Shown here piece after piece: positions 17,139-64,000 of a stretch of 64,000 nucleotides of DNA. The notes under the pieces are model-generated. The model worked only from the letters and a program-made list of their open reading frames with translations. It made no database searches and was not told where the DNA came from. The stretch is from contig CAZFRO010000006.1 of NCBI GenBank assembly GCA_964521425.1, positions 46,620 to 110,619 on the forward strand, in the 5' to 3' direction. A program made the position numbers and the translations under genes. This DNA is from an uncultured bacterium. Its GTDB lineage: Bacteria; Joyebacterota; Joyebacteria; Joyebacterales; Joyebacteraceae. Every line of letters begins with the position of its first letter. Positions within the stretch are counted from its first letter, which is position 1.

Positions 17139-18527
17139 ATGGCAGTCATCATCAAGGGAGGAAGGCTTGTCACGGCGATCGATTCCTACACCGCCGACCT
17201 GTTGGTGGTTGATGGGAAGATCGCCGTGATCGGTGTCGATCTGGCAGTACCTCCCGGTGCAGACGTCTACAACGCCAAGGGGAAGCTCATCCTTCCCGGT
17301 ATCATCGACGCGCACGTCCACGTCGACCTCGAACTGAGAGGGCATGCCTCCTCCGGCTTCCGCGCGACGACGCGGGAGGCTGCATTCGGCGGCGTTACAT
17401 CGTTCCTCACGTACGTCACACCACGCAAGGGTGAAGGACTCATGGATGCCGTGGCGGCTCGCCAGGCACAGGCTAACGGGCAGTGCTACGTGGACTACGG
17501 TCTACATGCGTCGCTCGTGCACTGGGCCGATCGAGAGAGTGATGAGATTCCCCAGCTGATCGAGGCGGGCATCCCGTCCTTCAAGATGTACACCGTCTAC
17601 TCAGATGCGGGGCTGTCGAGCAACGAGGACGAGCTGTACGAGGCGTTCCTTCTCGCCGGTCAGCACGGTGGGCTGATCGAGGTGCACTGCGAGAACGAGT
17701 GGATGATCGAGAACCGCATCACGCGGCTGGCGAATCAGGGAAGACTATCGGCGGCCGACCATGCAGAGAGCAGGCCGGGCTACGTTGAGGGAGAGGCCGT
17801 CGCTGCCGTCATCAGGGCAGCACATAACGCCGGAGCTCCCGTCTATATCGTGCACGTCTCCTCAGGCGAGGCTGTACAGACGATAGCCGAGGCCGATGAT
17901 CTGGGAATCGACATTTTCGCGGAGACGTGTCCGCATCTTCTGCTTCTGGACGAGGAGAAGCTCGCGGCCGCGGACGGCCACCGCTTCGCAACCTGTCCGC
18001 CCATCCGCTCCGAGGCTCACCGCGAGGAACTCTGGGATGCTCTTGAGGAGGAACTCATCCAGGTCGTAGCGACCGACCACGCCGAGTTCATGGCCGAGGC
18101 CAAGGATGAGGGAAGAGCGGATTTCAGGAAGATACCGATGGGCGTTCCCGGCGTCGGGACGCTTCTGCCGCTCATGTGGCAGTTCGGTGTTCGGGAGGGG
18201 AGACTCACAGAGAATCAACTGGTCGATCTTCTGAGTACACGTCCCGCCGAGATCTTCGGATTCTGTCCGGAGAAGGGAACACTGTCGCCCGGGACTGACG
18301 CGGACATCGTCGTCTTCGATCCGGCACTCGACGTGACGATCTCACCGGACGTTCTCCACGGATACACCGACTACTCGCCCTACGAGGGGAGACGGGTCAC
18401 CGGCTGGCCCGTCTGTACGATGGTTCGCGGCAACTGGGTCGTGAAAGACCGCGAGCTCATGGGAGACCACGAACTCGGATCGTTCGTCAAACGCGGCAAG
18501 GTCTGTCAGCGGCCCGGTCGGGTGTAA
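17139..18527 (+). CDS. dihydropyrimidinase / D-hydantoinase (cyclic amidohydrolase, HyuA-like)
   Basis: AGAAGAGGAAG sits before ATG 17139. Metal-binding start PGIIDAHVHV. Amidohydrolase barrel motifs (FKMY, HCENE, VHVSS, ATDHA). Confidence 0.8.
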   Translation: MAVIIKGGRLVTAIDSYTADLLVVDGKIAVIGVDLAVPPGADVYNAKGKLILPGIIDAHVHVDLELRGHASSGFRATTREAAFGGVTSFLTYVTPRKGEGLMDAVAARQAQANGQCYVDYGLHASLVHWADRESDEIPQLIEAGIPSFKMYTVYSDAGLSSNEDELYEAFLLAGQHGGLIEVHCENEWMIENRITRLANQGRLSAADHAESRPGYVEGEAVAAVIRAAHNAGAPVYIVHVSSGEAVQTIAEADDLGIDIFAETCPHLLLLDEEKLAAADGHRFATCPPIRSEAHREELWDALEEELIQVVATDHAEFMAEAKDEGRADFRKIPMGVPGVGTLLPLMWQFGVREGRLTENQLVDLLSTRPAEIFGFCPEKGTLSPGTDADIVVFDPALDVTISPDVLHGYTDYSPYEGRRVTGWPVCTMVRGNWVVKDRELMGDHELGSFVKRGKVCQRPGRV

Positions 18528-18571
18528 TCTCACCAGCTGTCCATCACTCGTCGGCCTTCCGGGGGGATGGC

Positions 18572-19150
18572 ATGACATTCTGGCAGTCACCTGTTGCTCT
18601 GGTCGTAGCGCCGGCCGCAGTGCTCGCGGCCGGCGCGTGGATAGTTAGGCGGCTTCTGGATCACTCGATTGACCGCGACCTGGAGCGGTACCGTAATCAG
18701 CTTGAGCTCGATCGCATCGAGTACCAGACCAAGCTGTCAGCGGTGCATGAGAGGCGTGCGCAGGTCATCGGTGAGCTCTATGAGAAACTGAGCGACGCGC
18801 ACTTCGCTCTCGGTCGCTTGACGACACCGGTGCAGTTCGATACTCGTCCGTACAAGGATAGGCGAGCGGACTCCGTGGGAGACTGCTGCGGGTTCATGGA
18901 CTACCTCCCGCGCGTCCGTATCTATCTAGATGCGGATATCGGCGACAAGTTGGACGAGGTTGCTACTGTCATACACAAGGTGTTTGTGCTGTTTGACACC
19001 ACGCAAGCCGAGTCCGGCGGGGATCCGAGAGACGTAGGTTACTCGCATGAGGCTTGGGACGAGTTCGAGGGCAAGTTCCTACCGGCAATGGAATTGCTGG
19101 AGGATCGATTCCGGGAGCTTCTGGGGACTGAACCTCCCCGGAAGGTATAA
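18572..19150 (+). CDS. hypothetical membrane-anchored protein
   Basis: N-terminal hydrophobic segment VALVVAPAAVLAAGAWIV. No known motif. Confidence 0.4.
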   Translation: MTFWQSPVALVVAPAAVLAAGAWIVRRLLDHSIDRDLERYRNQLELDRIEYQTKLSAVHERRAQVIGELYEKLSDAHFALGRLTTPVQFDTRPYKDRRADSVGDCCGFMDYLPRVRIYLDADIGDKLDEVATVIHKVFVLFDTTQAESGGDPRDVGYSHEAWDEFEGKFLPAMELLEDRFRELLGTEPPRKV

Positions 19151-19228
19151 CTGGCGTCTACAGTCGTCGGGCCGCGAACAGACGGATAGTACCAGTTGAA
19201 TGGCTTCAGAAATGCGCGGCCGTCTCTG

Positions 19229-19774
19229 TCACATGTCCTGCATATCCGCTTCGCCGGCAGGGATCGCATAGGTGCTGTCAGCAATCGTGTCATGAATCCA
19301 GAGCCCAGCCTCGTCACCAGACGAGCGGTACCAGCAGAGACGAGTTCCATCTGGACTCCAAGCAGGATGGTGGTCACGGTGGCCAGCGGTGATCAGCGTG
19401 AGGTTGCCGTCGGGTACCGTTGCCACAAACAGCGCTCCGTCGACCGTGACTGCGATGCGGCTCGTGTCCGGGCTCCACGCCGGACAGTCGCCGCCTCTCA
19501 GAAAGAACTCGAAGGAGTCGGCTTGCGTGAATGCGATCCAGACCCCTCGCAGGTCTGGATCCTCGATGTAGGATCCGTCCGCGTTCACTGTAACGATGCC
19601 GCGGTCGAGATAGGCCACTCTTGATGAAGGTGCCCACGACGGGTGGTCGTGGTGAATCGGATATACGGTGGAAGGAGCGATTGGCGACTCGCCGTTGCAT
19701 CCGATCGGCAAGAGAGCCACCAACACGACGAGCGCGGCAAGGATACGGACACTGCTGCGGGCGACGATGGGCAT
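19229..19774 (-). CDS. lipoprotein with TolB-like beta-propeller repeats
   Basis: Lipobox LLPIGCNG. Repeated motifs PSWAPSSRV, PAWSPDTSRIA and PAWSPDGTRL, matching the PxWSPDG pattern of TolB-type blades. Confidence 0.6.
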   Translation of the reverse strand: MPIVARSSVRILAALVVLVALLPIGCNGESPIAPSTVYPIHHDHPSWAPSSRVAYLDRGIVTVNADGSYIEDPDLRGVWIAFTQADSFEFFLRGGDCPAWSPDTSRIAVTVDGALFVATVPDGNLTLITAGHRDHHPAWSPDGTRLCWYRSSGDEAGLWIHDTIADSTYAIPAGEADMQDM

Positions 19775-19926
19775 ACTCTACTCCTTGAGTGTACACACAA
19801 TCCAAACAATGTATACTGTGGTCGGCTGGCTTGTCAATGTATGATTATGAGCGAGCGCGCGGAAGCTACATGTCCGGCCGCGGTGGCCTCATCCCTCGCA
19901 TAAGTGGACGCTCCCAAAGCGGATGC

Positions 19927-20139
19927 CTACCCAAGCCTGAATCCGGCGTTCTCGATGGCGGCCTTAACGGCACCCATGTCTGCGGTGCCGTCGGCCTCGT
20001 AGGTTACATCTCCACTCTGCAGATCAACAATGACGCCCGAAACCCCGTCGAGCGCCGAGAGCGCCCGTGTCACTGCACTGGAGCAGTGCTCGCACGACAT
20101 GCCCGAGACCTTGATGGTTGGCACTGAATTCTCTCCCAT
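19927..20139 (-). CDS. copZ: heavy-metal-associated domain copper chaperone (CopZ-like)
   Basis: 70 aa. GMSCEHC metal-binding motif in the first loop. Ferredoxin-like length. Confidence 0.75.
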   Translation of the reverse strand: MGENSVPTIKVSGMSCEHCSSAVTRALSALDGVSGVIVDLQSGDVTYEADGTADMGAVKAAIENAGFRLG

Positions 20140-20169
20140 TCGTAGTTGCGGTTGCTCGTGGTTGCGACG

Positions 20170-20370
20170 CTACTTCAGAAGAACAACCCTGGCCGTCGCG
20201 CCTCCGTCCTCTGTTCTCAGCTTCAGGAAATATACGCCAGTCGCAATGTCATCACCAGACAAGTCTGTACCGAGCCACGTGATCTCGTGATCGCCGGCGC
20301 TCCAGATCTCCGCTTCATGCAGGTTGATTGAGCAGCGGGGCGCCAGGAGTGCGTGGAGGCAAGGCCCCAC
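20170..20370 (-). pseudogene. orphan fragment of a T9SS C-terminal sorting domain (gene remnant)
   Basis: 66-aa ORF whose C-terminus (ITWLGTDLSGDDIATGVYFLKLRTEDGGATARVVLLK) matches the distal half of the CTDs seen elsewhere in the window. No upstream cargo domain. Confidence 0.45.
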
Positions 20371-20427
20371 CAGGTGAAGACTACAACATGGAGACTATAT
20401 CATGCAGGGGGCGCCTGCGCGAGCCTC

Positions 20428-20480
20428 TGGGGCTTCACGGACATTGCTGGGGCTTCAGGGACATTACCAGGGCTTCAGGG
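20428..20480. repeat. tandem direct repeat, about 20-21 nt x 2.5 (TGGGGCTTCAcGGACATTgc / TGGGGCTTCAgGGACATTacc / aGGGCTTCAGGGct)
   Basis: Read directly from the sequence. Lies between the CTD remnant and the ssnA promoter. Confidence 0.6.
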
Positions 20481-20491
20481 CTCGAAACCCG

Positions 20492-20520
20492 TTGACATCG
20501 GCGGGGGCTGCATCTAGACT
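20492..20520 (+). promoter_or_regulatory. sigma70-like promoter (TTGACA - 17 nt - TAGACT) upstream of ssnA
   Basis: Consensus -35 hexamer with 17-nt spacing to a TAnnnT -10. Lies 114 nt upstream of TTG 20634. Confidence 0.35.
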
Positions 20521-20633: not shown

Positions 20634-22031
20634 TTGGCAGACGTCACGAAGATCCTGATGGGCGGAACCGTCTTCACAGGCGGATCTGAGCCCCTGGTCA
20701 TTGAAGGCGGAGCGGTCGCGTTTAAGAGAGACCGGATCGTTGCCATAGGTCCTGTCTCGGAGGTCATTGACGCGCAGCGTGGTGCCGAGGTCATCGATGC
20801 ATCAGGCAAGCTGATCATGTCGGGGTTCGTCAACGCGCACACACATCTCTACAGCGCGCTGGCACGTGGCCTCATGGCCGATATAGCACCGTCCACCAAC
20901 TTTATCGAGATACTCGAACACCTCTGGTGGAAGCTCGATCGCGCCTTGACGCACGAGCATACCTGGTACTCGGCGGCGGCAGGTGCGCTTGATCTCGTGC
21001 GAAGTGGAACGACGACAATCATCGACCACCACGCCAGCCAGGTGAACATCACAGACAGCATGGCCAACGTCGCGGAGGCTCTCAGTGAGATCGGGATCCG
21101 CGCGAATCTCTGCTTCGAGGTCTCAGACAGAGGCGGAGAGACGAAGAGGGAGGAGGGACTGGCCGAGAGCGAGGCCCTCATCAGAGAGCTTGCGGCGGTG
21201 GCGGAAGCATCAGGCTCCGGAATCGGTGATGTCCCGAATAGTGGTGGCGACGTGGATGGAGCGGGACTCCTGAGCGCAAGCGTAGGGCTCCACGCGAGCT
21301 TCACGGTCGATGACGAAACTCTCGACCGCGCCGCGGGTATCGCAAAGGACGCGGGTGTCGGATGTCATATCCACGTGGCGGAGGATAGGGCGGATGTCGA
21401 CGACAGCGTGAAGCGATCAGGGAAGCGTGTTGTCGAGCGACTGCACGAGCACGACATTCTGGGTCGGAAGACCGTCGCCGCGCATTGTATTCATATCAAC
21501 GAGCACGAGCGCGACATCCTGGTCGACACCGACACGATCGTCGTTCACAACGCACAGTCGAACATGAACAACGCGGTCGGATGCGCCGACGTTCCCGGGA
21601 TGCTCGAGGCTGGAGTCCTCGTAGGGCTGGGTACTGATGGGTTCACCGGCAGTATGTTCGATGAGATGAAGGTGGCGAACCTGATCCATCGGCATGAGGC
21701 AGGCGACCCTCGGGTGGGGCACGACGTGGCCGAGAGGCTCTGTCTCAGGAACAACGGCGTGATCGGATCTCGTCTCGTGAACGGTACGGTAGGCGAACTC
21801 TCAGCCGGGGCGCTCGCTGACATCATCGTCCTCGACTACGATCCGCCGACGCCGCTCGAGGCGGCGAACTTCACGGGACACGTGATCTTCGGTCTGACCG
21901 GCTGGATGGTCGAGACGGTCATCATTGGCGGACGGGAGATCCTGCGCGACAGGGAGTTCACAACGGTTGATGCGACAGGCACGGCGGCGCGGGCGAGAGA
22001 ACTCGCGCGCGATCTCTGGGATCGAATGTAA
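20634..22031 (+). CDS. ssnA: putative aminohydrolase SsnA (amidohydrolase superfamily, selenium-dependent molybdenum hydroxylase context)
   Basis: Near-identical motif blocks to E. coli SsnA: HLWWKLDRAL, IIDHHAS, VHNAQSNMNNAVG, LGTDGFTGSMFDEMKVA, ALADIIVLDYDPPTPL. AGGAG sits before TTG 20634. ATG 20658 is an alternative start. Confidence 0.85.
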   Translation: MADVTKILMGGTVFTGGSEPLVIEGGAVAFKRDRIVAIGPVSEVIDAQRGAEVIDASGKLIMSGFVNAHTHLYSALARGLMADIAPSTNFIEILEHLWWKLDRALTHEHTWYSAAAGALDLVRSGTTTIIDHHASQVNITDSMANVAEALSEIGIRANLCFEVSDRGGETKREEGLAESEALIRELAAVAEASGSGIGDVPNSGGDVDGAGLLSASVGLHASFTVDDETLDRAAGIAKDAGVGCHIHVAEDRADVDDSVKRSGKRVVERLHEHDILGRKTVAAHCIHINEHERDILVDTDTIVVHNAQSNMNNAVGCADVPGMLEAGVLVGLGTDGFTGSMFDEMKVANLIHRHEAGDPRVGHDVAERLCLRNNGVIGSRLVNGTVGELSAGALADIIVLDYDPPTPLEAANFTGHVIFGLTGWMVETVIIGGREILRDREFTTVDATGTAARARELARDLWDRM

Positions 22032-22046
22032 GAAATCGGGGAACGT

Positions 22047-23276
22047 GTGAGGGGAGCAAAGGTCATAGCGCTCGAATGCGCGAAGTGTGGACGGGAGTAC
22101 GCGCCGGACGAGGTCCGGTTCACGTGTACCGATTGCGGCGTGGATGGCATCCTCGATGTCCTCTACGACTACGACGATATCGCGTCACGTTTCACAAGGG
22201 AGGATCTCGCTCGTTCGACCGAGCCATCCCACTGGCGCTATCTGCCGCTCATGCCGGTCGAGTCGCGCGGACATGCGCCGGCGCTCCGCGTCGGCTGGAC
22301 GCCCCTCTATCACCCGAAGGGTGTATTGGGGCTGTCCGAACTCTACATCAAGGATGACAGCCTCAATCCGACGGCGTCTCTCAAGGATCGCGCGACCTCC
22401 GTCGCCATGGCGAGAGCGGCCGAGGAGGGTGTCAAGGCCGTTGCCGCGGCATCGACCGGTAACGCCGGCTGTTCGCTTGCCGGCTTCGCAGCGGCAGCTC
22501 AGATGCCGTGCTATATCTTCGTTCCACGAACGGCCCCGCGTCCGAAGGTTGCGCAGCTCCTGGTCTACGGTGCGACCGTCTTCACCGTCGACGGAAGCTA
22601 CGATGACGCCTTCGATCTCGCGAACAGAGCAATCGAGCGATACGACTGGTACAACCGCTGTTGCGCCGTCAATCCGTACCTCGTCGAGGGTAAGAAGACG
22701 GTGGCCTTCGAGATCTGCGAGCAGCTCGACTTCCAGACGCCCGATAAGGTGTTTGTTCCAGTCGGGGACGGCTGCATCATGAGCGGGACGTACAAGGGAT
22801 TCGCGGAGTTCCTCAAGCTCGGGTTCATCGACCGAATGCCCGAACTCATCGGCGTTCAGGCCGAGGGCGCAAGCCCCGTGAAGCGAGTGTTCGAGACCGG
22901 AGGCGAGCTTGTCCCGTGTTCTGCATGCACGATCGCGGACAGCATCGCCGTCGGTCACCCCAGGAACTGGCGGAAGGCCGTCCGGGGAATCACGGCGAGC
23001 CGCGGGACAGTCATGACCGTGACCGACGATGAGATCATCGGCGCCATCCGCGAGCTGGCGGGGGCGACCGGCATCTTCGGTGAGCCGGCCGGAGTGACTG
23101 CCTTCGCGGGCCTCACCAAGGCCGTTCGGGAAGGGACGGTCGGGCGTGACGAGAGGATCGCGGTCCTGATGACAGGAAGCGGTCTCAAGGATACAGACGC
23201 TGCAATGAAGTCGGCGGGTGAACCGGTGGCGATAGGGCAATCGCTGGACGATGTCGAGCGGGCTCTGGCAAGGTAG
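22047..23276 (+). CDS. thrC: threonine synthase-like PLP enzyme (fold type II) with N-terminal zinc-ribbon extension
   Basis: N-terminal CAKCG...CTDCG ribbon. PLP-lysine block SLKDRAT. B. subtilis ThrC-like blocks AASTGNAG, VNPYLVEGKKTVAFEICEQL and LMTGSGLKD. GTG start. Confidence 0.7.
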   Translation: MRGAKVIALECAKCGREYAPDEVRFTCTDCGVDGILDVLYDYDDIASRFTREDLARSTEPSHWRYLPLMPVESRGHAPALRVGWTPLYHPKGVLGLSELYIKDDSLNPTASLKDRATSVAMARAAEEGVKAVAAASTGNAGCSLAGFAAAAQMPCYIFVPRTAPRPKVAQLLVYGATVFTVDGSYDDAFDLANRAIERYDWYNRCCAVNPYLVEGKKTVAFEICEQLDFQTPDKVFVPVGDGCIMSGTYKGFAEFLKLGFIDRMPELIGVQAEGASPVKRVFETGGELVPCSACTIADSIAVGHPRNWRKAVRGITASRGTVMTVTDDEIIGAIRELAGATGIFGEPAGVTAFAGLTKAVREGTVGRDERIAVLMTGSGLKDTDAAMKSAGEPVAIGQSLDDVERALAR

Positions 23277-23344: not shown

Positions 23345-23809
23345 ATGCAGGTTGTTCTCACAGTCAACGGCAGAATGCGGAAGGCCGAGGTTCCGCCCGC
23401 AACAACACTCCTTGAACTTCTGCGCGAGCACCTGGGTCTCAAAGGAACCAAGTGTGGATGCGCAAACGGAGAGTGCGGCGCGTGCACCGTCATCCTGGAT
23501 GGCGAACCGGTGACTTCGTGCATCATCTTTGCCGCGCAGTGCGAGGGGCGAGAGGTCCTGACGATAGAGGGACTGAGCCGAGAGGACGGAGAACTCGACC
23601 GCATTCAGCAGGCATTCATCGACGCGGGTGCCGTGCAGTGCGGGTATTGCACGCCCGGAATGATAATGTCGGCAGCAGCGTTTCTCTCGAAGAATCCGTA
23701 TCCCTCACGTGACGACATCGCGGTGGCGCTTTCGGGTAACCTGTGCAGATGCACCGGCTATGTGAAGATCGTGGACGCAGTCGAGGCGGTGTCACTCACG
23801 AATAAGTAG
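23345..23809 (+). CDS. (2Fe-2S)-binding small subunit of molybdopterin-dependent dehydrogenase (XdhC/CoxS-like)
   Basis: Plant-type ferredoxin motif GCANGECGACTV. Second cluster QCGYCTPG and NLCRCTGY. 154 aa. Confidence 0.85.
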   Translation: MQVVLTVNGRMRKAEVPPATTLLELLREHLGLKGTKCGCANGECGACTVILDGEPVTSCIIFAAQCEGREVLTIEGLSREDGELDRIQQAFIDAGAVQCGYCTPGMIMSAAAFLSKNPYPSRDDIAVALSGNLCRCTGYVKIVDAVEAVSLTNK

Positions 23810-23827: not shown

Positions 23828-24250
23828 ATGGAGTATCTCGAGAGCAAGGACCTGATCTTCATCAGGCTTCACCAGGACGACGAGCTGTTCGATTGCCTGA
23901 GGGAAGTGTGTGTCGCCTGTGATGTCAAGGTGGGGGTGGTGCTGTCGGGAATCGGGATGCTGAAGCAGGCGGAGCTCAATTTTTTCAAGAAGCAGGGCGA
24001 ATATTCGCAGGTGCTCTTCCCTGAACCGCTCGAACTCGTATCACTGACAGGAAATGTCATCTTCCAGGGCGGAGAACACGCGTTTCATCTTCACGCCATC
24101 CTGGCGCGCCCGAACAAGGATACGGTCGCCGGGCACCTCTCGAAGGGGAAGGTGAACGTGACGAACGAGATCGTCATTCTGAAGTCGGATGCGCCGCTTA
24201 AGCGCGAGCTTGATCCGGCAACAGGTCTCATGTCCCTACGTCTCAAATAG
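23828..24250 (+). CDS. PPC/DUF296 domain protein
   Basis: GEHAFHLHAIL motif, characteristic of COG1661/PPC domains. GGTGGAGAGGA sits before ATG 23828. GTG 23810 is an alternative start. Confidence 0.55.
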   Translation: MEYLESKDLIFIRLHQDDELFDCLREVCVACDVKVGVVLSGIGMLKQAELNFFKKQGEYSQVLFPEPLELVSLTGNVIFQGGEHAFHLHAILARPNKDTVAGHLSKGKVNVTNEIVILKSDAPLKRELDPATGLMSLRLK

Positions 24251-24259: not shown

Positions 24260-25075
24260 ATGAGTCCCACCCCGACAGAGCTGAGGGGCGTAGCCCAGGT
24301 CATCCGTCGTGACATTCTCACGATGCTCCTGGAGGCCGGCTCCGGTCATCCCGGAGGATCGCTCTCGGCCACCGACATCATCACTGTTCTGTACTGGGAA
24401 GTAATGAAGACCAGGCCCGACAGACCGGTGTGGGAAGAGCGGGACCGTTTCGTTCTCTCAAAGGCGCACGCTGCACCGGTTCTCTACGCCGCCCTTGCGC
24501 GTCGTGGCTTCTTCGATGTGAGAGAACTCATGACCTTCCGGAAGATGAAGTCGAAGCTCCAGGGGTTCCCGGACATGCACAAGACGCTGGGCATAGACGC
24601 GTCGGTGGGTTCGCCTGGTCAAGGGCTCTCGATTGCCAACGGCCTCGCGATAGCGGCCAAGCGCGACGCGAAGAACTTCCGTGTCTACTGTCTCATCGGG
24701 GACGGGGAGACGCAGGAGGGACAGATCTGGGAGGCCGCAATGACGGCGGCGCATCATGGTCTGGACAACGTCTGTGCAATCGTTGACCGGAACCGGATGA
24801 TGGGCGACGGGGACACCGAGAAGATCGCGGCGCTCTCGCCGCTCGCAGAGAAGTGGCGAACCTTCAATTGGCACGTTATCGAGACCGACGGGCACGACAT
24901 GGAGCAGCTGCTTCAAGCATTCGCCGAAGCAGCATTGGTGAAGGGGAAGCCCTCGCTGATTCTCGCACGTACCGTGAAGGGCAAGGGTGTTCCCTTCATG
25001 GAGAACAACCCGGAGTGGCACGACAGGAAGATCACAGAAGAGCTGTACGAAGAGGCCATGCAGGCTCTCGCGTAG
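24260..25075 (+). CDS. transketolase, N-terminal (TPP-binding) subunit
   Basis: GHPGGSLSATDIITVLYW TPP motif. GDGETQEG. About 270 aa, the split-transketolase type. Confidence 0.8.
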   Translation: MSPTPTELRGVAQVIRRDILTMLLEAGSGHPGGSLSATDIITVLYWEVMKTRPDRPVWEERDRFVLSKAHAAPVLYAALARRGFFDVRELMTFRKMKSKLQGFPDMHKTLGIDASVGSPGQGLSIANGLAIAAKRDAKNFRVYCLIGDGETQEGQIWEAAMTAAHHGLDNVCAIVDRNRMMGDGDTEKIAALSPLAEKWRTFNWHVIETDGHDMEQLLQAFAEAALVKGKPSLILARTVKGKGVPFMENNPEWHDRKITEELYEEAMQALA

Positions 25076-25119
25076 GAGCCCAGGAGCGCGGCACCAAACG
25101 TCTATCAGGGGCAACACTT

Positions 25120-45227: not shown

Positions 45228-45307
45228 AATCTTTGTACCACGTTAGCCATCTTACAGACAACACCACGCGCCGCCCCTTCGGGCGGCCAACGAGGGGGTA
45301 TGCTACG

Positions 45308-46603: not shown

Positions 46604-46674
46604 CGTCTCCGGCAGCAACGCAGGAATTCTCATGAACGAGACGTGTGTGGCCGGCCGCGACATAAGGACAGGCG

Positions 46675-47649: not shown

Positions 47650-47708
47650 CGCGCGTACCAGTACAGGTGAGGCACAGCTAGCACGCGTACCAGCACGGGT
47701 GAGGTTCG

Positions 47709-48734: not shown

Positions 48735-48785
48735 CAGGAGCATGGCCACGTCGAGCCCTGAGGATCAGTTGATGGAGGAATCGGA

Positions 48786-57859: not shown

Positions 57860-59086
57860 ATGCGACGAGGATTCACGGTCGTGATGGCTCTCCTCGCTGT
57901 CGCGAGTCTGTGCGGGAGCGCCGCGGCGTTCTCGTACGCAGAGTGGCACTACGGGGAGTTCGTACCAGCCGGCGACGCCAGGTCGCTGGCGCTTGGTGGG
58001 GCCGGACTCGCGTCCGCAGACGGGGCGCGTGGTGCGGGACTGAACCCCGCGCTGGTTGCGAAGACTGTCGGGCTCGAGCTTGCTATGAGCGCGATGCTGC
58101 TCACTGCGGAGGAGTCAAGAGAGGCGCCTCTCTACGACAGTTTTGAGGGCATCATCGGTTACAACACTTACGCATTCAACACGACGATGTACGATCGCTA
58201 CGTCGGGACGATCTCGTGGAAGCCGTCGGGCGACTACGACTGGGCTCCGGCTGTGGCGATCGGATACCACCCACGGCTGGACATGTCCTACAGCTACCAC
58301 GTCCAGTACAGGGACTCCGACACGCAGGCTGAGCCGATGGACAAGATTCTCTACGACTACTGGAACGAGGGCGAGGGCGGCGTCAACGCCTACACCGTGA
58401 CCCTGGCCCACGAGGTCGTACCGGAAGTCTACCTGGGGCTCGGCGTCGACTTCCTGAGAGGGCAGGCGGACGCAGAGGAGCGGTGGGTCTATCCGGAGTA
58501 CTCCGAGGAGACCGATGTAGACGGCTGGTTCGAATTGGATGGTTTCTCGGGGACCCAATTCACCGTCGGGCTTCTGGTCGAGAAGCTGCATCGTGTGGAC
58601 GTGGCCGTCGTATATCGCTCGAGCTTCGAACTGGCCGCCGACTACAGCGGTGAGAGCACGGAGGACGAGGCGGACGACGGGAACCTCACGTATTCGTATC
58701 CCTCAGCGATCGGTGTGGGGTTCGAGTACCACCCGCGCAACGAGATAATGACCACCGTGAGTCTGGATATCGAATACACGGAGTGGTCGAAGTTTGAGGA
58801 CAGCCTCACTGACGATCTGGATCTCAGCGACACGATCGAGTACCGCGTGGGCGTGGAGCATCAGTTCTTCAACACGACACAGGCCCGGTTTGGTTTCCTC
58901 TACCAGCCTTCCTACATGGATGACGAGACCACGAGAGCTGCATTCAGCATCGGTCTCGGGTTGGACCTCGTTGGCGTGAGGTTGGATGTAGGGGGGCAGC
59001 TTGGCGTGAGGGAGTACGATATCGAAGACGGTCGCATCCGTGAGACGACGACCACGGCGATGGTGAGTCTTTCGCACCGATTCTAG
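57860..59086 (+). CDS. FadL/PorV-like outer-membrane beta-barrel (paralogous fold to 54399)
   Basis: GGGGAGG sits before ATG 57860. Signal peptide. Motif ARSLALGGAGLASADGARGAGLNPA. Ends SLSHRF. Confidence 0.55.
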   Translation: MRRGFTVVMALLAVASLCGSAAAFSYAEWHYGEFVPAGDARSLALGGAGLASADGARGAGLNPALVAKTVGLELAMSAMLLTAEESREAPLYDSFEGIIGYNTYAFNTTMYDRYVGTISWKPSGDYDWAPAVAIGYHPRLDMSYSYHVQYRDSDTQAEPMDKILYDYWNEGEGGVNAYTVTLAHEVVPEVYLGLGVDFLRGQADAEERWVYPEYSEETDVDGWFELDGFSGTQFTVGLLVEKLHRVDVAVVYRSSFELAADYSGESTEDEADDGNLTYSYPSAIGVGFEYHPRNEIMTTVSLDIEYTEWSKFEDSLTDDLDLSDTIEYRVGVEHQFFNTTQARFGFLYQPSYMDDETTRAAFSIGLGLDLVGVRLDVGGQLGVREYDIEDGRIRETTTTAMVSLSHRF

Positions 59087-59118: not shown

Positions 59119-60873
59119 ATGATAATTCGACGAAGGCTCACGCTGGTACTTGCGGTTGCCATAGCTGTCCTTGCTGTGGCGCCGGCGTGGGGCGCTTCAG
59201 ACACCGATGGATTGTTCCGCCTGTCTGTCGTGTTCACGAACGACATACACGGTGGGATCGACCCGTCGGGAGCTACCTTTATGAACAGGGAGTTCCCGCC
59301 GCCTCTGGGTGGAGCCGCCTCGGCTGTCACCTACATTGAGATGTTGCGGGAGAGGGCGAGGGAAGAGGGTGGAGCTGTCCTGCTGATTGATCAGGGCGAC
59401 ATCTTTCAGGGTACTCCGGTCGGCAACTTCCGGAAGGGTGAGTCCGTCATCGAGTACTTCAATCATGTCGGATTCGATCTCTGGACGATCGGCAACCACG
59501 ATTTCGATGAGGGAGCCGAGAACCTCTGGCACCTGATCGAGATGTCAGAAATGCCGGTACTCTCGGCGAACCTGGTGTGGGAGGAGACCGGAGAACCGGT
59601 CGAGCACGTCGAGCCCTACATCATCAAGGACTACGGCGGCGTCAAGGTGGCCATCGTAGGACTGACGACGACGGACACTCCCAAGATGGCTTTTCCCGCT
59701 CATGTTGCGGGCGTGAAGTTCCTGTCTTCCATCGAGACGGCGGAGCGCTACGTCAAGGAAGTCAGAGAGGCAGGGGCGGACATCGTCATCTTCTCCGGGC
59801 ATATGGGGCTTCCGTACGATCCCATCTCCGGCTATGCGAAGCTCATCGAAGAAGAGCAGGAGCGGGACGAGGAGGCCGTGCGCGAGCCGCTTGAGGAGAA
59901 GAAGTGGGGTGCGCATGCGATGGAGATCGCCCACAAGGTGCCCGGCATCGACGCCTTCTTCGCCGGTCATATCCATAAGGGATTTGATGAGCCGTGGGAG
60001 GAGCCGTCCACACACACCATCATCTTCCAGACCTACGGGCGGGGCTCCGGAGTTGGCAACGTCGATCTCCTGATCGACCCCGTGACGAAGACGCTGGTCG
60101 GATATGAACTTCCGTCGTACCGTGGTGACCTCATCACGCTCTTCGAGGATCAGTGGTGGCCGAATGAGGAGACCACTGAGATGATCACCGCTCTGGTCGA
60201 TGAGGCGGAAGTCGGGATGGACCGCATCATTGGCTACACCGATATCGATCTTTCGCGGGGAGGAGATGGTGAGACCAGAATGGGGAACCTGGTCTGCAGC
60301 GCCATGCTCGAAGAAGTTGATGCTGATTTCGCGTTCACGAACCTCGGTGGTATCCGGGACGAGATCCCGACCGGCCCCGTGACGCCGCGCCAGGTCTTCA
60401 AGGTTCTTCCGTTTGGCAACAGCCTCATGGTGTTCGAGATGGACGGGAGGCTCTTGAAGGAAGTAGTCGAGTATCGCGTCAGCGCCGACCACCATGGTGT
60501 CTACATGGCCGGTGGCAGGATCGTCTACAACAAGACACGACCGGACTACGACCGCGTGACCTCCTTCACGATCGGTGGTGAGCCATGGGAGGCGGACCGC
60601 ATCTACCGCGTCGTCACGAGTGACTTCCTTGCGGTGGGCAATGCGGGTCTCTACATGCTTCCCGACATACCTGATGACAAGAAGCGGAGAACCTCGACGA
60701 CGTGTATGGACGCGGCTGTCCACTACATTGAACGTCATACTCCGATAGGACCTCAGCTCGACGGGCGATGGGTGAGGGATGATGAGGCCGAGGTCAGTGC
60801 CGCTCTCATCGCAGCCATGGAGGGCATGGAGCCCTTAGCACCCCCCGTGGAGGAGGCTAGCGGGCCCTACTAG
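59119..60873 (+). CDS. secreted bifunctional metallophosphatase / 5'-nucleotidase (UshA family)
   Basis: GAGGAGAAG SD. Signal peptide. VVFTNDIHGG, DQGDIFQGTPVGNF and GNHDFDEG metallophosphatase motifs. C-terminal 5'-nucleotidase domain (FTNLGGIRDEIPTGPVT, FGNSL). Confidence 0.85.
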   Translation: MIIRRRLTLVLAVAIAVLAVAPAWGASDTDGLFRLSVVFTNDIHGGIDPSGATFMNREFPPPLGGAASAVTYIEMLRERAREEGGAVLLIDQGDIFQGTPVGNFRKGESVIEYFNHVGFDLWTIGNHDFDEGAENLWHLIEMSEMPVLSANLVWEETGEPVEHVEPYIIKDYGGVKVAIVGLTTTDTPKMAFPAHVAGVKFLSSIETAERYVKEVREAGADIVIFSGHMGLPYDPISGYAKLIEEEQERDEEAVREPLEEKKWGAHAMEIAHKVPGIDAFFAGHIHKGFDEPWEEPSTHTIIFQTYGRGSGVGNVDLLIDPVTKTLVGYELPSYRGDLITLFEDQWWPNEETTEMITALVDEAEVGMDRIIGYTDIDLSRGGDGETRMGNLVCSAMLEEVDADFAFTNLGGIRDEIPTGPVTPRQVFKVLPFGNSLMVFEMDGRLLKEVVEYRVSADHHGVYMAGGRIVYNKTRPDYDRVTSFTIGGEPWEADRIYRVVTSDFLAVGNAGLYMLPDIPDDKKRRTSTTCMDAAVHYIERHTPIGPQLDGRWVRDDEAEVSAALIAAMEGMEPLAPPVEEASGPY

Positions 60874-61017: not shown

Positions 61018-61046
61018 TGGACAAGTGATGCTCTGTGTGGTATAAT
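61018..61046 (+). promoter_or_regulatory. strong sigma70-like promoter: TGGACA - 17 nt - TGgTATAAT (extended -10)
   Basis: Perfect TATAAT at 61041-61046 with an upstream TG. The -35 TGGACA lies at 61018-61023. Followed by a leader of about 160 nt before ATG 61211. Confidence 0.5.
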
Positions 61047-61210
61047 CTAACGTCGGGAAAAATCACCCTTCCCGAGGGTGGGGTTGTTGCGCCTTCGGGG
61101 CGGAGTGAGGTTGTTTATCCAAAGGGATGACAGGTGGAGGGAGTGACCTGGGAATCGCTTCCCCGATAGATTTGTTGGCAACGGTGGGAGAACACCAAGG
61201 AGGTCGTGTG

Positions 61211-64000
61211 ATGATGAAGCTGTCTGTTCTGGTCGCAGCCGTGCTCGTTCTGGTATTCGGCGCGGCCATGGCTAATCCTTCAGGTACCGATGTTGTTATC
61301 AATGAGATCTACCCGGACGCCAACGAGTACTATGACGGCGCCGAGTTCATTGAGCTCTACAATCCGACCGGAAGTTCGATTGACATCGGCGGATTTGTTC
61401 TCTGCGGAGTCGAGTACGACCAGCTCTGCGGAGGCGAAGACCGCTGGCAGTTCCCGTTTGGGACGACCATCGCCGCCGGGGGCTACATCACGGTCGCGAA
61501 GGACGGGGCCGACGGTGACGACGGATTCTACGAGGAGTTCGGGATCTACCCCGACTTCGAGATGTTCGATGCGTCGTTTGAGTTCGATAACGACAGCATG
61601 TTTGTCCCAAACATGAATCTCCTGGACCCCGATCCTGCGACCGGCTACAGCGACGAGATACAGCTGGTCGGCGGCAAGGGCTACGGCACCATGTGCGGCG
61701 GCTACAGCAATGGTGACGTTGTGTATCTGTACACGACAGGATCTCTGATAACTCTGGTCGACCTTGTCGAGTACGCCGATATGGAGGTCTGCACCGAGGA
61801 TCCGTGTTTCGGCGATGACGGTATCCCGGACAATGCGTTCGACGAGATCCCGTACCTCGGCAACACACTTGGTCGTGACGCCTCCAGCACGGACACCGAT
61901 AGCAGCATCACGGACTGGCAGATGCAGGCTCCCACGCCCGGCGTTCAGAACATTCAGAACACGCCGCCGTGGATTCGTTCGGTCATGTACTCGCCGATCC
62001 CACCGATGGACACGGACGCCGTCGACATCACGGCTGTCGTGACCGATGATGGCAGCGTAGATTCAGTCATGGTCTACTACCGTGTGGACGCGGGGCCGTG
62101 GGGCACAGTTGCCGCATCGGGAGTGGACACACTCTACACGGGTACCATTGCGGCCCAGGCGAACGGATCCCAGGTCCAGTACTTCGTGCGTGCCGTCGAC
62201 AATCATGGCGCCGGCATCAACTACCCGTCCGAGGGTTTCTCTGATCCGTACGCCTACTCGGTCGGCTTCACGACCATCTACGATGTGCAGTTCGTACCTT
62301 TTGGTGGCGATGCGTCGCCTCTCGAAGGCCAGACTGTCAACGTGACGGGTATTGTGACTGCAGCGAAGGGCGAGTTCTCCGATTCATTCTGCATGATCCA
62401 CGAAGGCAATACGTACTTCGAGGGCATCAAGATCTACGCCACGTACAACTACGACGGCGAGATCAATGAGGGTGACGAGATCACGGTCTCCGGTTTTGTG
62501 ACCGAGTACTACGGTGAGACCGAGATCTATGTTCCTTTCAATGAGGCAGTCACGATTCTCTCGACGGGCAATGCGAACTACGGCTATGCCGCAGTCACAA
62601 CGGCCGACATCGATCCTGATGACACCGGCTCCGAGGCGTATGAAGGTCAGCTCATCAGCGTCAGCAACGTGACGGTGACGGCCGAGCCCGACGGCTACGG
62701 CCAGTGGTACATCGAGGATGCCTCGGCAGTGGGTGCCATGGTCGATGACTACGGGTACTACAGCTACACCCCGCAGCTCTTTGATGTGCTCGACGAGGTT
62801 CGTGGCGTACTGATGTACAGCTACGACCAGTTCAAGATCGAGCCGCGGTACGACGAAGATATCGTTGGTCCGCCGAGGATCGCGGACGTTCGCTACTCGC
62901 CGATACCGCCGGTGGCCGGCAATGTCACGATTACTGCCGACATCACCGACAACCAGGGCATCAGTTCGGCAACGCTGAACTACGCTCTTTCGGCGGCAGG
63001 TCCCTTCAGCCAGACGCCGATGACGACATCGCGCGATATCTACTCCGCGACGATCGGTCCGTACGTCGATGGCAACAGGATCTACTACTTCATCGAGGCC
63101 AGCGACGGCGTGATGGATGCCAGGAAGCCGACTGCGGGCTCGTACAGCCTCTACATCGGCATGGTCGACATCTTCGACATCCAGTTTGTCGCCGCCCCTG
63201 GTGTGGATGACACGTCACCGCTCGACACGCTTGCGGTCAACACGACCGGTATCGTGACGGCGGAGCCGGGTGTCTACAGCGACTACTATTTCACGATCCA
63301 GACCGAGGACGTGGCACGCGGTGCGTGGCAGGGAATCAAGGTCTACGATCGCACCGGTTCGGCGAGCTTCGAGCGCGGCGATGAGATCATCGTCTGTGGC
63401 GAGGTTCAGGAGAACTGGGGCGAGACTGAGGTCTCCCTGCACTTCGTCGAGGGAGCAGTCCTCGTCGAGTCGCGCGGCAGCATGCCGGATGCAGTCTCCA
63501 TCGCTACGGCCGATCTCCAGACCAAGACCACCGGCGAGCAGTACGAGGGCGTCTACGTTCACGCCGAGGACGCTACGGTCATGGTTGCGGACATGGGCTA
63601 CGGCGAATGGGCCATCACAAACGGGGCCGCTGGTGATACGTGCCGCGTCGATGATGACGCTCCGTACACCTACGAGCCGGTAGAGGGCGACAACGTCTTC
63701 GTTCTTGGTACGGTCATGTTCTCGTATGGCAACTACAAGCTCGAGCCGCGCGGCGATGACGATATCGCCGTCAATCCGGTCGGTGTCGAAGACGGCATCG
63801 TCGGTGCCAAGCTCGATCTCGGCCAGAACATGCCGAACCCGTTCAACCCGAAGACGACCATCGCCTTCACACTGCCTGAGCCGACGGATGTCACGATCGA
63901 GGTCTACGATGTGACCGGTCGCAGGATCGTCACACTCATGAGCGACCGCCTCGAAGCGGGTGGTCACTTCGTCGAGTGGTCGGGACGTGGTGACAACGGT
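61211..64000 (+). CDS. secreted multi-domain T9SS cargo (3' end beyond window): lamin-tail domain, FN3/Ig-like modules, two OB-like modules, CTD beginning at about 63815
   Basis: AAGGAGG sits before ATG 61211. Signal peptide MMKLSVLVAAVLVLVFGAAMA. LTD: VVINEIYPDANEYYDGAEFIELYNPTGSSIDIGGFVLCG. OB-like: IYDVQFVPFGG...TVNVTGIVTA and IFDIQFVAAPG...NTTGIVTA. CTD start: NMPNPFNPKTTIAFTL...VTIEVYDVTGRRIVTL. Confidence 0.8.
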   Translation, partial: MMKLSVLVAAVLVLVFGAAMANPSGTDVVINEIYPDANEYYDGAEFIELYNPTGSSIDIGGFVLCGVEYDQLCGGEDRWQFPFGTTIAAGGYITVAKDGADGDDGFYEEFGIYPDFEMFDASFEFDNDSMFVPNMNLLDPDPATGYSDEIQLVGGKGYGTMCGGYSNGDVVYLYTTGSLITLVDLVEYADMEVCTEDPCFGDDGIPDNAFDEIPYLGNTLGRDASSTDTDSSITDWQMQAPTPGVQNIQNTPPWIRSVMYSPIPPMDTDAVDITAVVTDDGSVDSVMVYYRVDAGPWGTVAASGVDTLYTGTIAAQANGSQVQYFVRAVDNHGAGINYPSEGFSDPYAYSVGFTTIYDVQFVPFGGDASPLEGQTVNVTGIVTAAKGEFSDSFCMIHEGNTYFEGIKIYATYNYDGEINEGDEITVSGFVTEYYGETEIYVPFNEAVTILSTGNANYGYAAVTTADIDPDDTGSEAYEGQLISVSNVTVTAEPDGYGQWYIEDASAVGAMVDDYGYYSYTPQLFDVLDEVRGVLMYSYDQFKIEPRYDEDIVGPPRIADVRYSPIPPVAGNVTITADITDNQGISSATLNYALSAAGPFSQTPMTTSRDIYSATIGPYVDGNRIYYFIEASDGVMDARKPTAGSYSLYIGMVDIFDIQFVAAPGVDDTSPLDTLAVNTTGIVTAEPGVYSDYYFTIQTEDVARGAWQGIKVYDRTGSASFERGDEIIVCGEVQENWGETEVSLHFVEGAVLVESRGSMPDAVSIATADLQTKTTGEQYEGVYVHAEDATVMVADMGYGEWAITNGAAGDTCRVDDDAPYTYEPVEGDNVFVLGTVMFSYGNYKLEPRGDDDIAVNPVGVEDGIVGAKLDLGQNMPNPFNPKTTIAFTLPEPTDVTIEVYDVTGRRIVTLMSDRLEAGGHFVEWSGRGDNG

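Follow-up and report, generated by a model that had tools for sequence, protein, structure and literature searches.

The pathway by which anaerobes degrade purines was solved only in 2025, and surveys of metagenome-assembled genomes (MAGs) show it to be enriched in host-associated microbiomes and in Bacillota. Specifically, in this reductive (2,8-dioxopurine) pathway, XdhD/DOPDH reduces urate to 2,8-dioxopurine, and either YgfK or the PydA-like enzyme UacX dearomatizes the ring. SsnA and HyuA open the rings to yield 2,3-diureidopropionate, YgeW together with carbamate kinase generates ATP, and YgeY and YgeX complete the route to pyruvate (bioRxiv 10.1101/2025.05.19.654654, 10.1101/2025.04.24.650524). 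Here, we analyze a 64,000-nucleotide stretch of DNA from an uncultured bacterium (contig CAZFRO010000006.1 of assembly GCA_964521425.1, positions 46,620 to 110,619), called the window below. The window belongs to a Candidatus Eisenbacteria genome and carries three conserved modules on one strand, each of which stands alone in other lineages: a surface module (A; 45.3 to ~68 kb, i.e., beyond the window end at 64 kb), an import module (B; 35.5–45.2 kb), and a purine fermentation module (C; 17.1–35.5 kb plus PreT/PreA at 1.3–3.9 kb). Together, the three modules probably form a salvage-to-energy line for nucleic acids.

Like the Escherichia coli ygeW–xdhD cluster and those of Clostridium sporogenes and Clostridioides difficile, module C encodes SsnA, a HyuA-type hydantoinase, iron–sulfur (FeS) and FAD subunits of the xanthine dehydrogenase (XDH) family, MocA, and YqeB. 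Shared, too, are a PydA/YgfK-type reductase (split into PreT and PreA in the window), an OTCase-family carbamoyltransferase followed by a carbamate kinase, and a PALP-fold enzyme. Unlike those clusters, the window lacks the molybdenum (Mo) catalytic subunit, YgeY, YgeX, YqeC, and a purine permease. In addition, neither of its two tandem carbamoyltransferases is a YgeW equivalog, and it has a threonine-synthase-like (ThrC-like) enzyme in place of the diaminopropionate ammonia-lyase, a YqeB split in two, and extra transketolase, aminotransferase, and PCC genes. The hosts also differ: here, an uncultured Candidatus Eisenbacteria organism from metagenomes rather than gut Bacillota or Enterobacteriaceae.

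The idea of an anaerobe that forages for DNA, equipped with nucleases and nucleotidases, transporters for nucleosides, and loci for purine fermentation, is already in print (PMC8289736). Specifically, the genomes of Ca. Izemoplasmatales, DNA foragers of marine sediment, unite extracellular nucleases and nucleotidases with nucleoside transporters and the anaerobic breakdown of purines, and their purine deaminases are encoded beside xanthine dehydrogenase genes (Wasmund et al. 2021, PMC8289736). The window embodies the same concept. Their steps, however, are spread over several loci, and their nucleases are of known families, whereas the window is a single ~65-kb co-directional array, without a canonical nuclease, in a diderm with substrates of the type IX secretion system (T9SS). 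On the surface side, the closest described proteins are ExeM of Shewanella and Xds of Vibrio, nucleases with the architecture lamin-tail domain (LTD)–OB fold–EEP, in which the OB region is essential for activity (PMC6085458, PMC6746945). The window proteins share with them a signal peptide, the lamin-tail domain, and an OB-fold nucleic-acid-binding region, and carry T9SS C-terminal sorting domains instead of the C-terminal EEP domain. To judge from their domains, they look like binding modules without the catalytic module.

The polysaccharide utilization loci of Bacteroidota, which join SusC/SusD to surface binding proteins and enzymes, offer a parallel in operon logic: a large outer-membrane barrel, surface binding proteins, degradative enzymes, and an inner-membrane importer. 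Unlike those loci, the window has neither a TonB-dependent SusC nor a SusD, its surface proteins are T9SS substrates rather than lipoproteins, and its substrate would be nucleic acid. In the searchable literature, we found no description of a ComEA–barrel fusion and no study of purine or nucleic-acid use in Eisenbacteria. A paper on the activated-sludge secretome mentions that one Eisenbacteria MAG encodes several nucleases.

A clade-specific fusion of three modules

Our annotation is based on Pfam and NCBIfam scans of every plus-strand gene, with curated cut-offs for the NCBIfam models. Throughout the window, G+C content is 59–65%, and nearly all of the DNA is coding, on the plus strand; all module genes described below lie on this strand. 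Between 20.6 and 64 kb, the gaps between called plus-strand genes are mostly shorter than 120 bp. The scans bear out, position by position, the gene categories named in an earlier, sequence-only reading of the window, and the array exceeds the coordinates first given for it: PreT/PreA and a truncated HHH_3-family protein lie at 1–3.9 kb, and the final LTD gene extends past the 3' end. Proteins identical to those of the window occur on ~20 independently assembled contigs (ENA, JGI, and Logan; e.g., Ga0118726_1000274 and SUTE22-1 scaffold_629), and the matching contigs carry the locus ~12 kb past the window's 3' end. Given that the same arrangement recurs in independent assemblies, an assembly artefact is excluded. 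What the analysis establishes directly are families, folds, motifs, gene order, and the conservation of that order.

Using adenine deaminase as the query against species-representative genomes, we obtained 17 Eisenbacteria/Ca. Effluviviaceae loci in which the enzyme is 78–97% identical to that of the window; identity then drops sharply, to ≤59% in other phyla. The sequence-only reading had raised the prospect that homologous loci might be scattered without linkage. Instead, the order PCC…carbamate kinase–adenine deaminase–MFS–BMP ABC–(phosphatase)–MBL–CUT1 permease is kept in 17 of 17 Eisenbacteria loci, wherever they reach. The block from the MBL gene to DUF7544 (45–68 kb) is kept in two metagenome loci (L087 and L088) and in L094, and purine and surface markers lie on a single contig in several relatives (e.g., JBDRIO010000011.1, CAYNQF010000005.1, and WJLY01000009.1).

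Farther away, the surface module travels by itself. Six distant loci (L095–L100), whose helix–hairpin–helix (HHH) protein is 36–53% identical, contain the series large surface protein–~290-amino-acid (aa) barrel–HHH barrel–~430-aa barrel–5'-nucleotidase. L095 and L100 keep the whole run from the MBL gene to the 5'-nucleotidase, and L096, L097, and L098 keep the five-gene core. In L099, which lies at a contig end, the upstream surface protein is reduced to a T9SS-type tail; its counterpart in the other five distant loci has an LTD match. A partial locus, L089 (34%), has an MBL gene near the HHH gene. The flanks of the distant loci are unrelated (an M16 peptidase, an A2M-family gene, an AAA_2/ClpB-type ATPase gene, RsgA, and MoaA). 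Because the module constantly ends in a 5'-nucleotidase amid such flanks, the surface proteins co-vary with a nucleotide gene and not with glycan genes, the other outcome that the sequence-only reading had entertained. Conservation of the supra-locus, which it had proposed to check, holds within the Eisenbacteria clade and fails outside it, where the modules stand apart. A, B, and C are separable modules whose fusion is specific to one clade: only close Eisenbacteria relatives have all three joined. Our data support a functional theme that is real and not a chance juxtaposition.

The surface module and its HHH barrel

At the center of module A lies the gene for the HHH barrel (55314–57791), an 825-aa protein with a signal peptide, two ComEA-like helix–hairpin–helix domains (residues ~30–190), and a predicted ~24-strand outer-membrane beta-barrel (residues ~200–825). 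The structural model, built with 54 sequences (pLDDT 81, pTM 0.77), shows ~24 long beta-strands and is as similar to usher and AlgE pores as to TonB-dependent receptors; the chain ends in DYSW. Among the surface and import proteins, there are no Pfam matches to TonB_dep_Rec, Plug, or SusD, and no plug or TonB box was detected. Arginine occupies 12 of the 42 invariant columns of the HHH barrel versus 6.2% of the barrel composition (binomial 6e-6), which is suggestive of an anion-binding lumen, perhaps with an OprP-type ladder. The family is rare, with 177 cluster representatives at E ≤ 1e-30 among 1.84 billion.

Two smaller outer-membrane barrels flank the HHH barrel: a PorV/PorQ-family protein (54399–55280; NF033709, 76.8 bits, E = 2e-21, below the cut-off of 90) and a FadL/BamG/PorV-like protein (57860–59086; Pfam Toluene_X, 30.9 vs. 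29.7, with weak BamG and PorV matches). In 6 of 6 distant loci, a ~290-aa gene without a Pfam match directly precedes the HHH gene, and its similarity to the 54399–55280 barrel (38–41%) is seen in L095 and L096. A gene of ~410–445 aa follows the HHH gene in every distant locus, with similarity to the second barrel (30–31%) in L095 and L096 and a Toluene_X match in L095 and L099. Closing the core is a UshA-like 5'-nucleotidase with a signal peptide (59119–60873; Pfam Metallophos plus 5_nucleotid_C, 112 bits; UshA is the best NCBIfam match, below cut-off), and a Metallophos plus 5_nucleotid_C gene does so in all six distant loci.

Within and around the core are secreted proteins with putative nucleic-acid-binding folds. 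The first (50130–51275) has nucleic-acid-type OB folds, which in models resemble RPA, and a T9SS-like C-terminal domain. The second, a large surface protein of 1010 aa (51314–54346), consists of an OB-like/DUF5689 N-terminus, an LTD (Pfam, 48.5 vs. 34.3), Ig-like repeats, an OB region, and a T9SS-like C-terminal domain; its DUF5689, FlgD_ig, and OB matches are weak. Its residues 714–1024 are 33% identical to the 50130–51275 protein, with which it shares the same OB region and the same tail. The third, a second LTD surface protein of 956 aa in full (61214–64000, running off the 3' end), combines an ExeM/NucH-like OB region with a T9SS type A sorting domain (TIGR04183, 38.4 vs. 23). The full gene is present in L004, with LTD, FlgD_ig, and Por_Secre_tail matches. 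The ExeM_NucH model matches the OB region only (positions 1–115 of 546). Signal peptides are predicted on the LTD, OB, and HHH proteins, the surface proteins bear the C-terminal sorting domain of type IX secretion, and the FlgD_ig-type tails of the proteins that start at 50130, 51314, and 5371 are mutually homologous. With both LTD proteins and the HHH protein as queries, sequence searches of the PDB returned only FlgD-like tails and marginal HHH matches. The sequence-only reading had placed surface DNA-binding proteins at 50–64 kb; that description suits the LTD, OB-fold, and HHH proteins, while the products of 54399–55280 and 57860–59086 are FadL/PorV-type barrels, not DNA binders.

Upstream, at the start of module A, lies the gene for a lipoprotein (LAGC lipobox) with a ComEC-type metallo-beta-lactamase (MBL) domain (45308–46603; TIGR00361, ComEC/Rec2 C-terminal region, 3.3e-27). 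Its nearest solved relatives are ComEC beta-lactamase-like domains in the PDB (E = 1e-12), and its HSHEDH motif is intact. The match to TIGR00361 covers positions 440–633 only, and there are no predicted multi-pass membrane segments; the ComEC membrane channel (Competence/DUF4131 domains) is absent from the protein. From its sequence, the MBL lipoprotein is the candidate nuclease of the locus. Accordingly worded, the secreted nuclease/phosphoesterase candidates of the sequence-only reading are present as phosphoesterases, the ComEC-type MBL protein, and the 5'-nucleotidase, with no canonical nuclease among them.

The similarity of the HHH domains to HHH_3/ComEA and the ComEC-type MBL raise the question of natural competence or adhesion to extracellular DNA, in which case the HHH barrel, the MBL lipoprotein, and the OB proteins would serve transformation or tether the cell to an extracellular DNA matrix. 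We judge this very improbable. Unlike in ComEA, the HHH domains of the window are joined to a large outer-membrane barrel, not to a membrane anchor. Unlike in ComEC, the MBL domain is a free-standing lipoprotein without the channel, and its context is catabolic (the 5'-nucleotidase). The locus has no ComEC membrane channel domain, pilus, secretin, or DprA, and the core operon always ends in the 5'-nucleotidase, a degradative enzyme.

Between the MBL and OB genes is a CUT1 (UgpAEB-like) system composed of two permeases (46675–47649 and 47709–48734; UgpA and UgpE are the best NCBIfam matches, below cut-off) and a UgpB-like lipoprotein binding protein (48786–50081; UgpB is the best NCBIfam match, likewise below cut-off). 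The system (46675–50081) has no ATPase gene and is conserved with the surface module in L094, L095, and L100. An open reading frame at 46560–47681, considered as an unknown protein, is in the wrong frame; the true gene is the permease at 46675–47649.

These Ugp-like genes bring phosphorus into play. In a phosphorus-scavenging scheme, the surface/phosphoesterase half of the locus would work as a Pho-type system, taking phosphate off nucleic acids and phosphodiesters and leaving the bases as a by-product. Consistent with such a scheme are the best matches of the CUT1 system to UgpA, UgpE, and UgpB, the two metallophosphoesterases in the locus, the alkaline-phosphatase-superfamily gene beside the core in L097–L099, and the fact that extracellular nucleases are known tools of phosphorus acquisition (PMC8289736). 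Nonetheless, Pfam scans find no Pst, PhoU, or PhoB genes in the locus, the Ugp-like scores are far under cut-off (131 vs. 411), and the surface module adjoins a nucleoside-type importer and an ATP-yielding purine pathway. We give phosphorus scavenging as the primary function a low probability, and note that phosphorus and energy uses are mutually compatible.

A more ambitious proposal concerns the five-gene core (LTD/OB protein, PorV-like barrel, HHH barrel, FadL-like barrel, and 5'-nucleotidase). We offer it tentatively, as an idea with the odds against it. The notion is that the core serves uncultured bacteria with a T9SS as a hitherto undescribed apparatus for nucleic-acid utilization. The HHH barrel would then be a catabolic outer-membrane channel of a new kind for DNA or oligonucleotides, its ComEA-like domains acting as a periplasmic ratchet, and in this clade the apparatus would be joined to a purine variant that may yield two carbamoyl phosphates, and with them two ATP, per purine.

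The import module

Module B opens with a major facilitator superfamily (MFS) transporter (35515–36750; Pfam MFS_1; its NCBIfam matches stop at superfamily level, a weak one to PunC among them). Next comes an ATP-binding cassette (ABC) importer of the BMP family, complete as an operon: a BMP/PnrA-family lipoprotein binding protein (36747–37760; Pfam Bmp), a fused double ATPase (37817–39409; Pfam ABC_tran twice), and two permeases (39406–40557 and 42205–43107; Pfam BPD_transp_2 in both). This order is kept in Eisenbacteria. The binding protein scores 72 bits against a B6-type BMP model whose cut-off is 400, a family-level match. Gene neighborhoods supply a clue to the ligand of the importer. In at least 11 Chloroflexota loci, the BMP ABC genes adjoin adenine deaminase, and in four Anaerolineae loci, they lie between carbamate kinase and the ThrC-like gene. 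Occurrence of the BMP ABC genes beside adenine deaminase in two phyla is suggestive of a nucleoside ligand.

The module ends with a secreted metallophosphoesterase that resembles purple acid phosphatases (43188–45227; Pfam Pur_ac_phosph_N plus Metallophos, weak; signal peptide). Among 11 relatives that reach this position, the gene was detected in six and not detected in five.

A variant of the reductive purine pathway

Module C represents a variant, apparently of the selenium type, of the reductive (2,8-dioxopurine) route for purines. Its marker enzyme is the SsnA aminohydrolase (~20658–22031; NF005540, 528 vs. 444; TIGR03314, 504 vs. 455), which is 37% identical to E. coli SsnA. A D-hydantoinase/dihydropyrimidinase (17139–18527; TIGR02033, 419.6 vs. 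393.25) would take the HyuA role of opening the second ring; it aligns with E. coli HyuA from 17139 onward, at 34% identity across 456 aa. The flavin reductase of PydA/YgfK/UacX type is present as PreT plus PreA, 13 kb from the cluster. PreT, a GltD-like FeS/FAD subunit (1310–2635; Pfam Fer4_20 plus Pyr_redox_2), is 32% identical to the middle of E. coli YgfK and is a candidate for the electron-input half of a 2,8-dioxopurine (or dihydropyrimidine) reductase. PreA, an FMN DHO_dh barrel with two [4Fe-4S] clusters (2635–3873; NF006183, 528 bits vs. a cut-off of 335), is by homology the candidate dearomatizing reductase in the YgfK/UacX role. PreA orthologues occupy the same position in L091 (80% identical) and L092 (51%), and in both loci PreT/PreA adjoin the SsnA-type purine cluster. 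In L091, PreA, an alpha/beta hydrolase, the hydantoinase, and SsnA lie near one another; the window hydrolase (16143–17057; Pfam Hydrolase_4) is a conserved neighbor of the hydantoinase, with a 49% orthologue at the same position in L091.

Several genes specify the molybdenum hydroxylase and its maturation. These encode a 2Fe-2S small subunit of the XDH family (23345–23809; Pfam Fer2 plus Fer2_2; 48% identical to E. coli XdhC), an FAD-binding medium subunit in the YgfM/XdhB role (29765–30625; Pfam FAD_binding_5 plus CO_deh_flav_C; 31% identical to E. coli XdhB), and a MocA-like molybdenum cofactor cytidylyltransferase (27461–28063; Pfam NTP_transf_3; TIGR03310, 145 vs. 186, family level only). 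The 541-aa YqeB of E. coli corresponds to two overlapping genes at 28097–29760: an XdhC-family maturation factor equivalent to its N-terminal half (28097–28927; Pfam XdhC_CoxI plus XdhC_C; 35% identical to YqeB residues 2–252) and a YqeB-type maturation protein of the selenium-dependent molybdenum cofactor (28924–29760; TIGR03309, 313.9 vs. 220; 49% identical to residues 268–524). This split is the reason for the two identity figures. The hydroxylase of the sequence-only reading is borne out by the FeS and FAD subunits, MocA, XdhC, and YqeB, and lacks a Mo catalytic subunit in the window. The Mo subunit is also absent from L091. In L092, from another lineage, it stands at the cluster head and is accompanied by PreTA, an SsnA-like gene, and the FeS and FAD subunits. 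We considered a hidden or frameshifted Mo subunit in the window and rejected it: six-frame searches with E. coli XdhA and the Mo part of XdhD gave no match to such a subunit, and the gap at 18.5–20.5 kb contains unrelated small genes instead.

The end of the pathway is where the window departs most from the E. coli scheme. Carbamoyltransferase 1 (30736–31788; Pfam OTCace_N plus OTCace; best NCBIfam match N-acetylornithine carbamoyltransferase, 287 vs. 288) and carbamoyltransferase 2 (31802–32806; the same Pfam domains; no NCBIfam cut-off reached) score 185 and 122 bits on the YgeW model, versus its cut-off of 453, and are 33% and 29% identical to E. coli YgeW. Assignment to ordinary ArgF/ArcB was rejected. 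All cut-offs for ornithine, putrescine, and N-acetylornithine carbamoyltransferases are missed (one by a single bit), and the constant partners are carbamate kinase and the ThrC-like enzyme. Carbamoyltransferase 1 is 71% identical in L092 and L093, both outside Eisenbacteria, and carbamoyltransferase 2 has 54–61% orthologues there, always directly after carbamoyltransferase 1 (window 30736–32806; L092 6958–9036; L093 6879–8967). As paralogues, the two tandem enzymes are distinct from each other and deeply conserved.

Carbamate kinase, which makes ATP from carbamoyl phosphate, follows (32816–33754; TIGR00746, 388.5 vs. 358.25; 51% identical to E. coli YqeA), and then adenine deaminase (33758–35470; TIGR01178, 664.7 vs. 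472.5; Pfam Adenine_deam_C, 226 bits). The ThrC-like protein is a fold-type II pyridoxal phosphate (PLP) enzyme (22047–23276; Pfam PALP; ThrC is the best NCBIfam match, below or near cut-off). The run carbamoyltransferase–carbamoyltransferase–kinase–ThrC-like is found also in L092, in L093 (Caldiserica), and in Anaerolineae, where the cluster comprises adenine deaminase, carbamoyltransferases, carbamate kinase, the BMP ABC genes, and the ThrC-like gene. In Eisenbacteria, the ThrC-like gene sits earlier in the purine cluster; elsewhere, it comes after carbamate kinase. We propose that each of the two ureido groups of 2,3-diureidopropionate is split off phosphorolytically by a carbamoyltransferase of its own, and that the ThrC-like enzyme replaces YgeX as the terminal deaminating lyase. 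If so, each purine would give two carbamoyl phosphates, hence two ATP, and double phosphorolysis could double the substrate-level ATP yield.

Three further functions lie within the cluster: a PCC/PPC-domain protein (23828–24250; PF03479, 88 bits; conserved in Eisenbacteria loci), a split transketolase (24260–26142, with the N subunit at 24260–25075 and the C subunit at 25120–26142; Pfam Transketolase_N, Transket_pyr, and Transketolase_C), and a class I/II aminotransferase (26216–27370; Pfam Aminotran_1_2, 245 bits; no NCBIfam equivalog at cut-off). The split transketolase is 76–93% conserved in relatives and possibly provides a pentose link.

From nucleic acids to ATP: the proposed line and its alternatives

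Read as consecutive steps, the three modules suggest the following course. T9SS-secreted proteins with LTD and RPA-like OB folds would hold DNA or RNA at the cell surface. The MBL lipoprotein would perform the nuclease step, joined in some relatives by the purple-acid-phosphatase-like esterase. The HHH barrel and the two flanking FadL/PorV-type barrels would pass the fragments across the outer membrane, or anchor them, and the periplasmic 5'-nucleotidase would convert nucleotides to nucleosides. Nucleosides or bases would enter by the BMP ABC transporter and perhaps by the MFS transporter too. In the purine half of the scheme, purines would be processed successively by adenine deaminase, the molybdenum hydroxylase (its catalytic subunit encoded elsewhere), and the PreTA-type reductase. 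SsnA and the hydantoinase would then open the rings, and the two carbamoyltransferases would release carbamoyl phosphate. Carbamate kinase would make ATP, and the ThrC-like PLP enzyme would release the C3 unit. What we infer in this course comprises all substrates, the direction of transport, the nuclease activity, the topology and transport function of the HHH barrel, the roles of the carbamoyltransferases and the ThrC-like enzyme, and co-expression or co-regulation of the array.

A number of observations weigh against this scheme. First, signs of common control are lacking. An Rfam scan of the whole window for riboswitches and other RNAs returned nothing at gathering scores, no shared regulator was found in the window, and a sigma-70 promoter and terminator scan covering 44–64 kb yielded promoter-like and terminator-like counts not above those of shuffled controls. 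Second, unrelated genes break the array (the cohesin/beta-helix block at 5–16 kb, the CopZ and PD40 genes at 19–20.4 kb, and MurJ), and PCC, the split transketolase, and the aminotransferase, which are confined to Eisenbacteria among the loci examined, have no assigned role in it. Third, steps are missing from the window. No gene has an Ald_Xan_dh_C or MoCoBD Pfam match that would denote a Mo-binding catalytic subunit. In our comparison with the E. coli purine cluster (six-frame tblastn of the window, threshold 1e-5), XdhA and XdhD matched only the FeS N-terminus and no Mo part, and YgeX and YgeY had no match; YqeC, too, has no homologue in the six-frame search. Neither guanine deaminase nor a purine permease was found in the window, and Pfam scans of it reveal no nucleoside phosphorylase/hydrolase or deoxyribose genes. 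The LTD/OB proteins have no Pfam match to the EEP nuclease domain, and Pfam/NCBIfam scans show no nuclease of a canonical family in the window. Fourth, the BMP and UgpB-like binding-protein families take many ligands, and both members here score far below equivalog cut-offs. Finally, outside the clade, the modules keep other company: in L095 and L100 (the 45–46% tier), the surface module has an M16 peptidase gene on its upstream side, housekeeping genes flank the surface core in L096–L099, and the purine module occurs without the surface module in other phyla (L092 and L093). With the Mo subunit, nucleoside phosphorylase/hydrolase, guanine deaminase, deoxyribose genes, and a canonical nuclease all missing from the window, the route from DNA to ATP, which the sequence-only reading proposed as complete, is incomplete there.

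Some of these points suit another explanation, namely juxtaposition without joint function. Recent common descent would have kept the order, the purine cluster would operate on free purines or urate, and the surface module would be otherwise employed. In keeping with this explanation, the modules are found separately in other lineages, the full fusion occurs only among relatives with 78–97% identical adenine deaminases, lineage-specific insertions and MurJ lie inside the array, and promoter-like sites lie at the B/A boundary (45202–45230) and, a strong one, before the last LTD gene (61018–61046). On the other hand, each module is nucleotide-related on its own, and the three are arranged as consecutive steps. 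An HHH_3-family protein is encoded directly upstream of PreT in both the window and L091, Anaerolineae independently embed the BMP ABC importer within purine genes, and a purine nucleoside phosphorylase (PNP) gene lies near the core module in L096. Moreover, gene order is unbroken across 17 species-level genomes. We therefore hold juxtaposition without joint function to be unlikely, if worth keeping in mind, and favor the salvage-to-energy line. What does not follow is the lifestyle specialized on necromass nucleic acids that the sequence-only reading put forward: a lifestyle is not inferable from one locus, and phosphorus scavenging is equally natural for the surface/phosphoesterase half. The appearance of a one-locus pipeline is the product of a clade-specific module fusion, and our inference about lifestyle is tempered for that reason.

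Neighboring genes and other features

Upstream of PreT, the window begins with the C-terminal part of an HHH_3-family protein (1–1247, plus strand), which runs off the 5' end; no in-frame stop precedes the ATG at position 30. Over its C-terminal two-thirds, a 669-aa HHH_3 protein encoded immediately upstream of PreT in L091 (176–2185) shares 34% identity with this window protein, and the two represent a second HHH_3-containing family. Kinship of this first open reading frame with the HHH barrel was rejected because pairwise BLAST was not significant, though a GQGLV-type motif is, by eye, common to both.

PreTA and the purine cluster are separated by a block at 5371–16029 that encodes a right-handed beta-helix protein of 1906 aa and four proteins with cohesin domains; each of the five carries a FlgD_ig/T9SS-like C-terminal domain. 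Given that no such block lies between PreA and the alpha/beta hydrolase in L091, it is a lineage-specific insertion. A second insertion of ~2 kb (18572–20520) lies between the hydantoinase and SsnA genes, which are adjacent in L091. It contains a small transmembrane protein gene and, at 19.2–20.4 kb, three small minus-strand genes: one for a PD40-like lipoprotein (19229–19774), one for a CopZ-like HMA protein with a GMSCEHC motif (19927–20139), and a fragment resembling a T9SS tail (20170–20370). The gene for the MurJ lipid II flippase (40554–42191, plus strand; TIGR01695, 270 vs. 235.6) lies between the two BMP permease genes, with an overlap of a few bases on either side. Of the 13 Eisenbacteria loci that extend this far, 12 have it and L016 lacks it.

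Two near-consensus sigma-70-like matches are of note for their positions. At the B/A boundary, before the MBL gene, is TTGACT-17-TAGAAT (45202–45230), and in the 340-bp gap before the last LTD gene is TGGACA-17-TATAAT with a TG (61018–61046). Their presence is compatible with several transcription units. Downstream of the window, L004 (15195–18849, corresponding to ~64.3–68 kb) encodes an InhA-like MAM metalloprotease, which bears a T9SS tail, and a small LTD protein of 215 aa; genes for a Na/Ca exchanger, DUF7544, and a MurQ-like protein lie beyond. L087, L088, and L094 lack the protease and keep the 215-aa LTD protein. Beside the surface core in three distant loci, on the opposite strand, is an alkaline-phosphatase-superfamily gene (Sulfatase/Phosphodiest; L097 4510–6030, L098 3270–4859, and L099 6777–8132), whose product may be a phosphodiesterase partner of the core. 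A tRNA scan of the window found no tRNA genes.

Concluding remarks

What is new here, above all, is the conserved outer-membrane core with its ComEA–barrel fusion. New also are the host lineage, the joining of three modules in a ~65-kb array, and the cross-phylum carbamoyltransferase–carbamoyltransferase–kinase–ThrC-like variant. The locus extends the anaerobic purine pathway to an uncultured candidate phylum known from metagenomes, and the chemistry and ATP yield of the variant with two carbamoyltransferases and a ThrC-like enzyme are open to tests with purified enzymes.

Extracellular DNA and RNA constitute a large pool of carbon, nitrogen, and phosphorus. How fragments of nucleic acid cross the outer membrane of diderm bacteria as food, rather than for transformation, is poorly understood. 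The HHH barrel, in which ComEA-like domains are mounted on an usher-sized barrel that always shares its operon with surface OB/LTD proteins and a 5'-nucleotidase, represents a testable candidate for such outer-membrane uptake.

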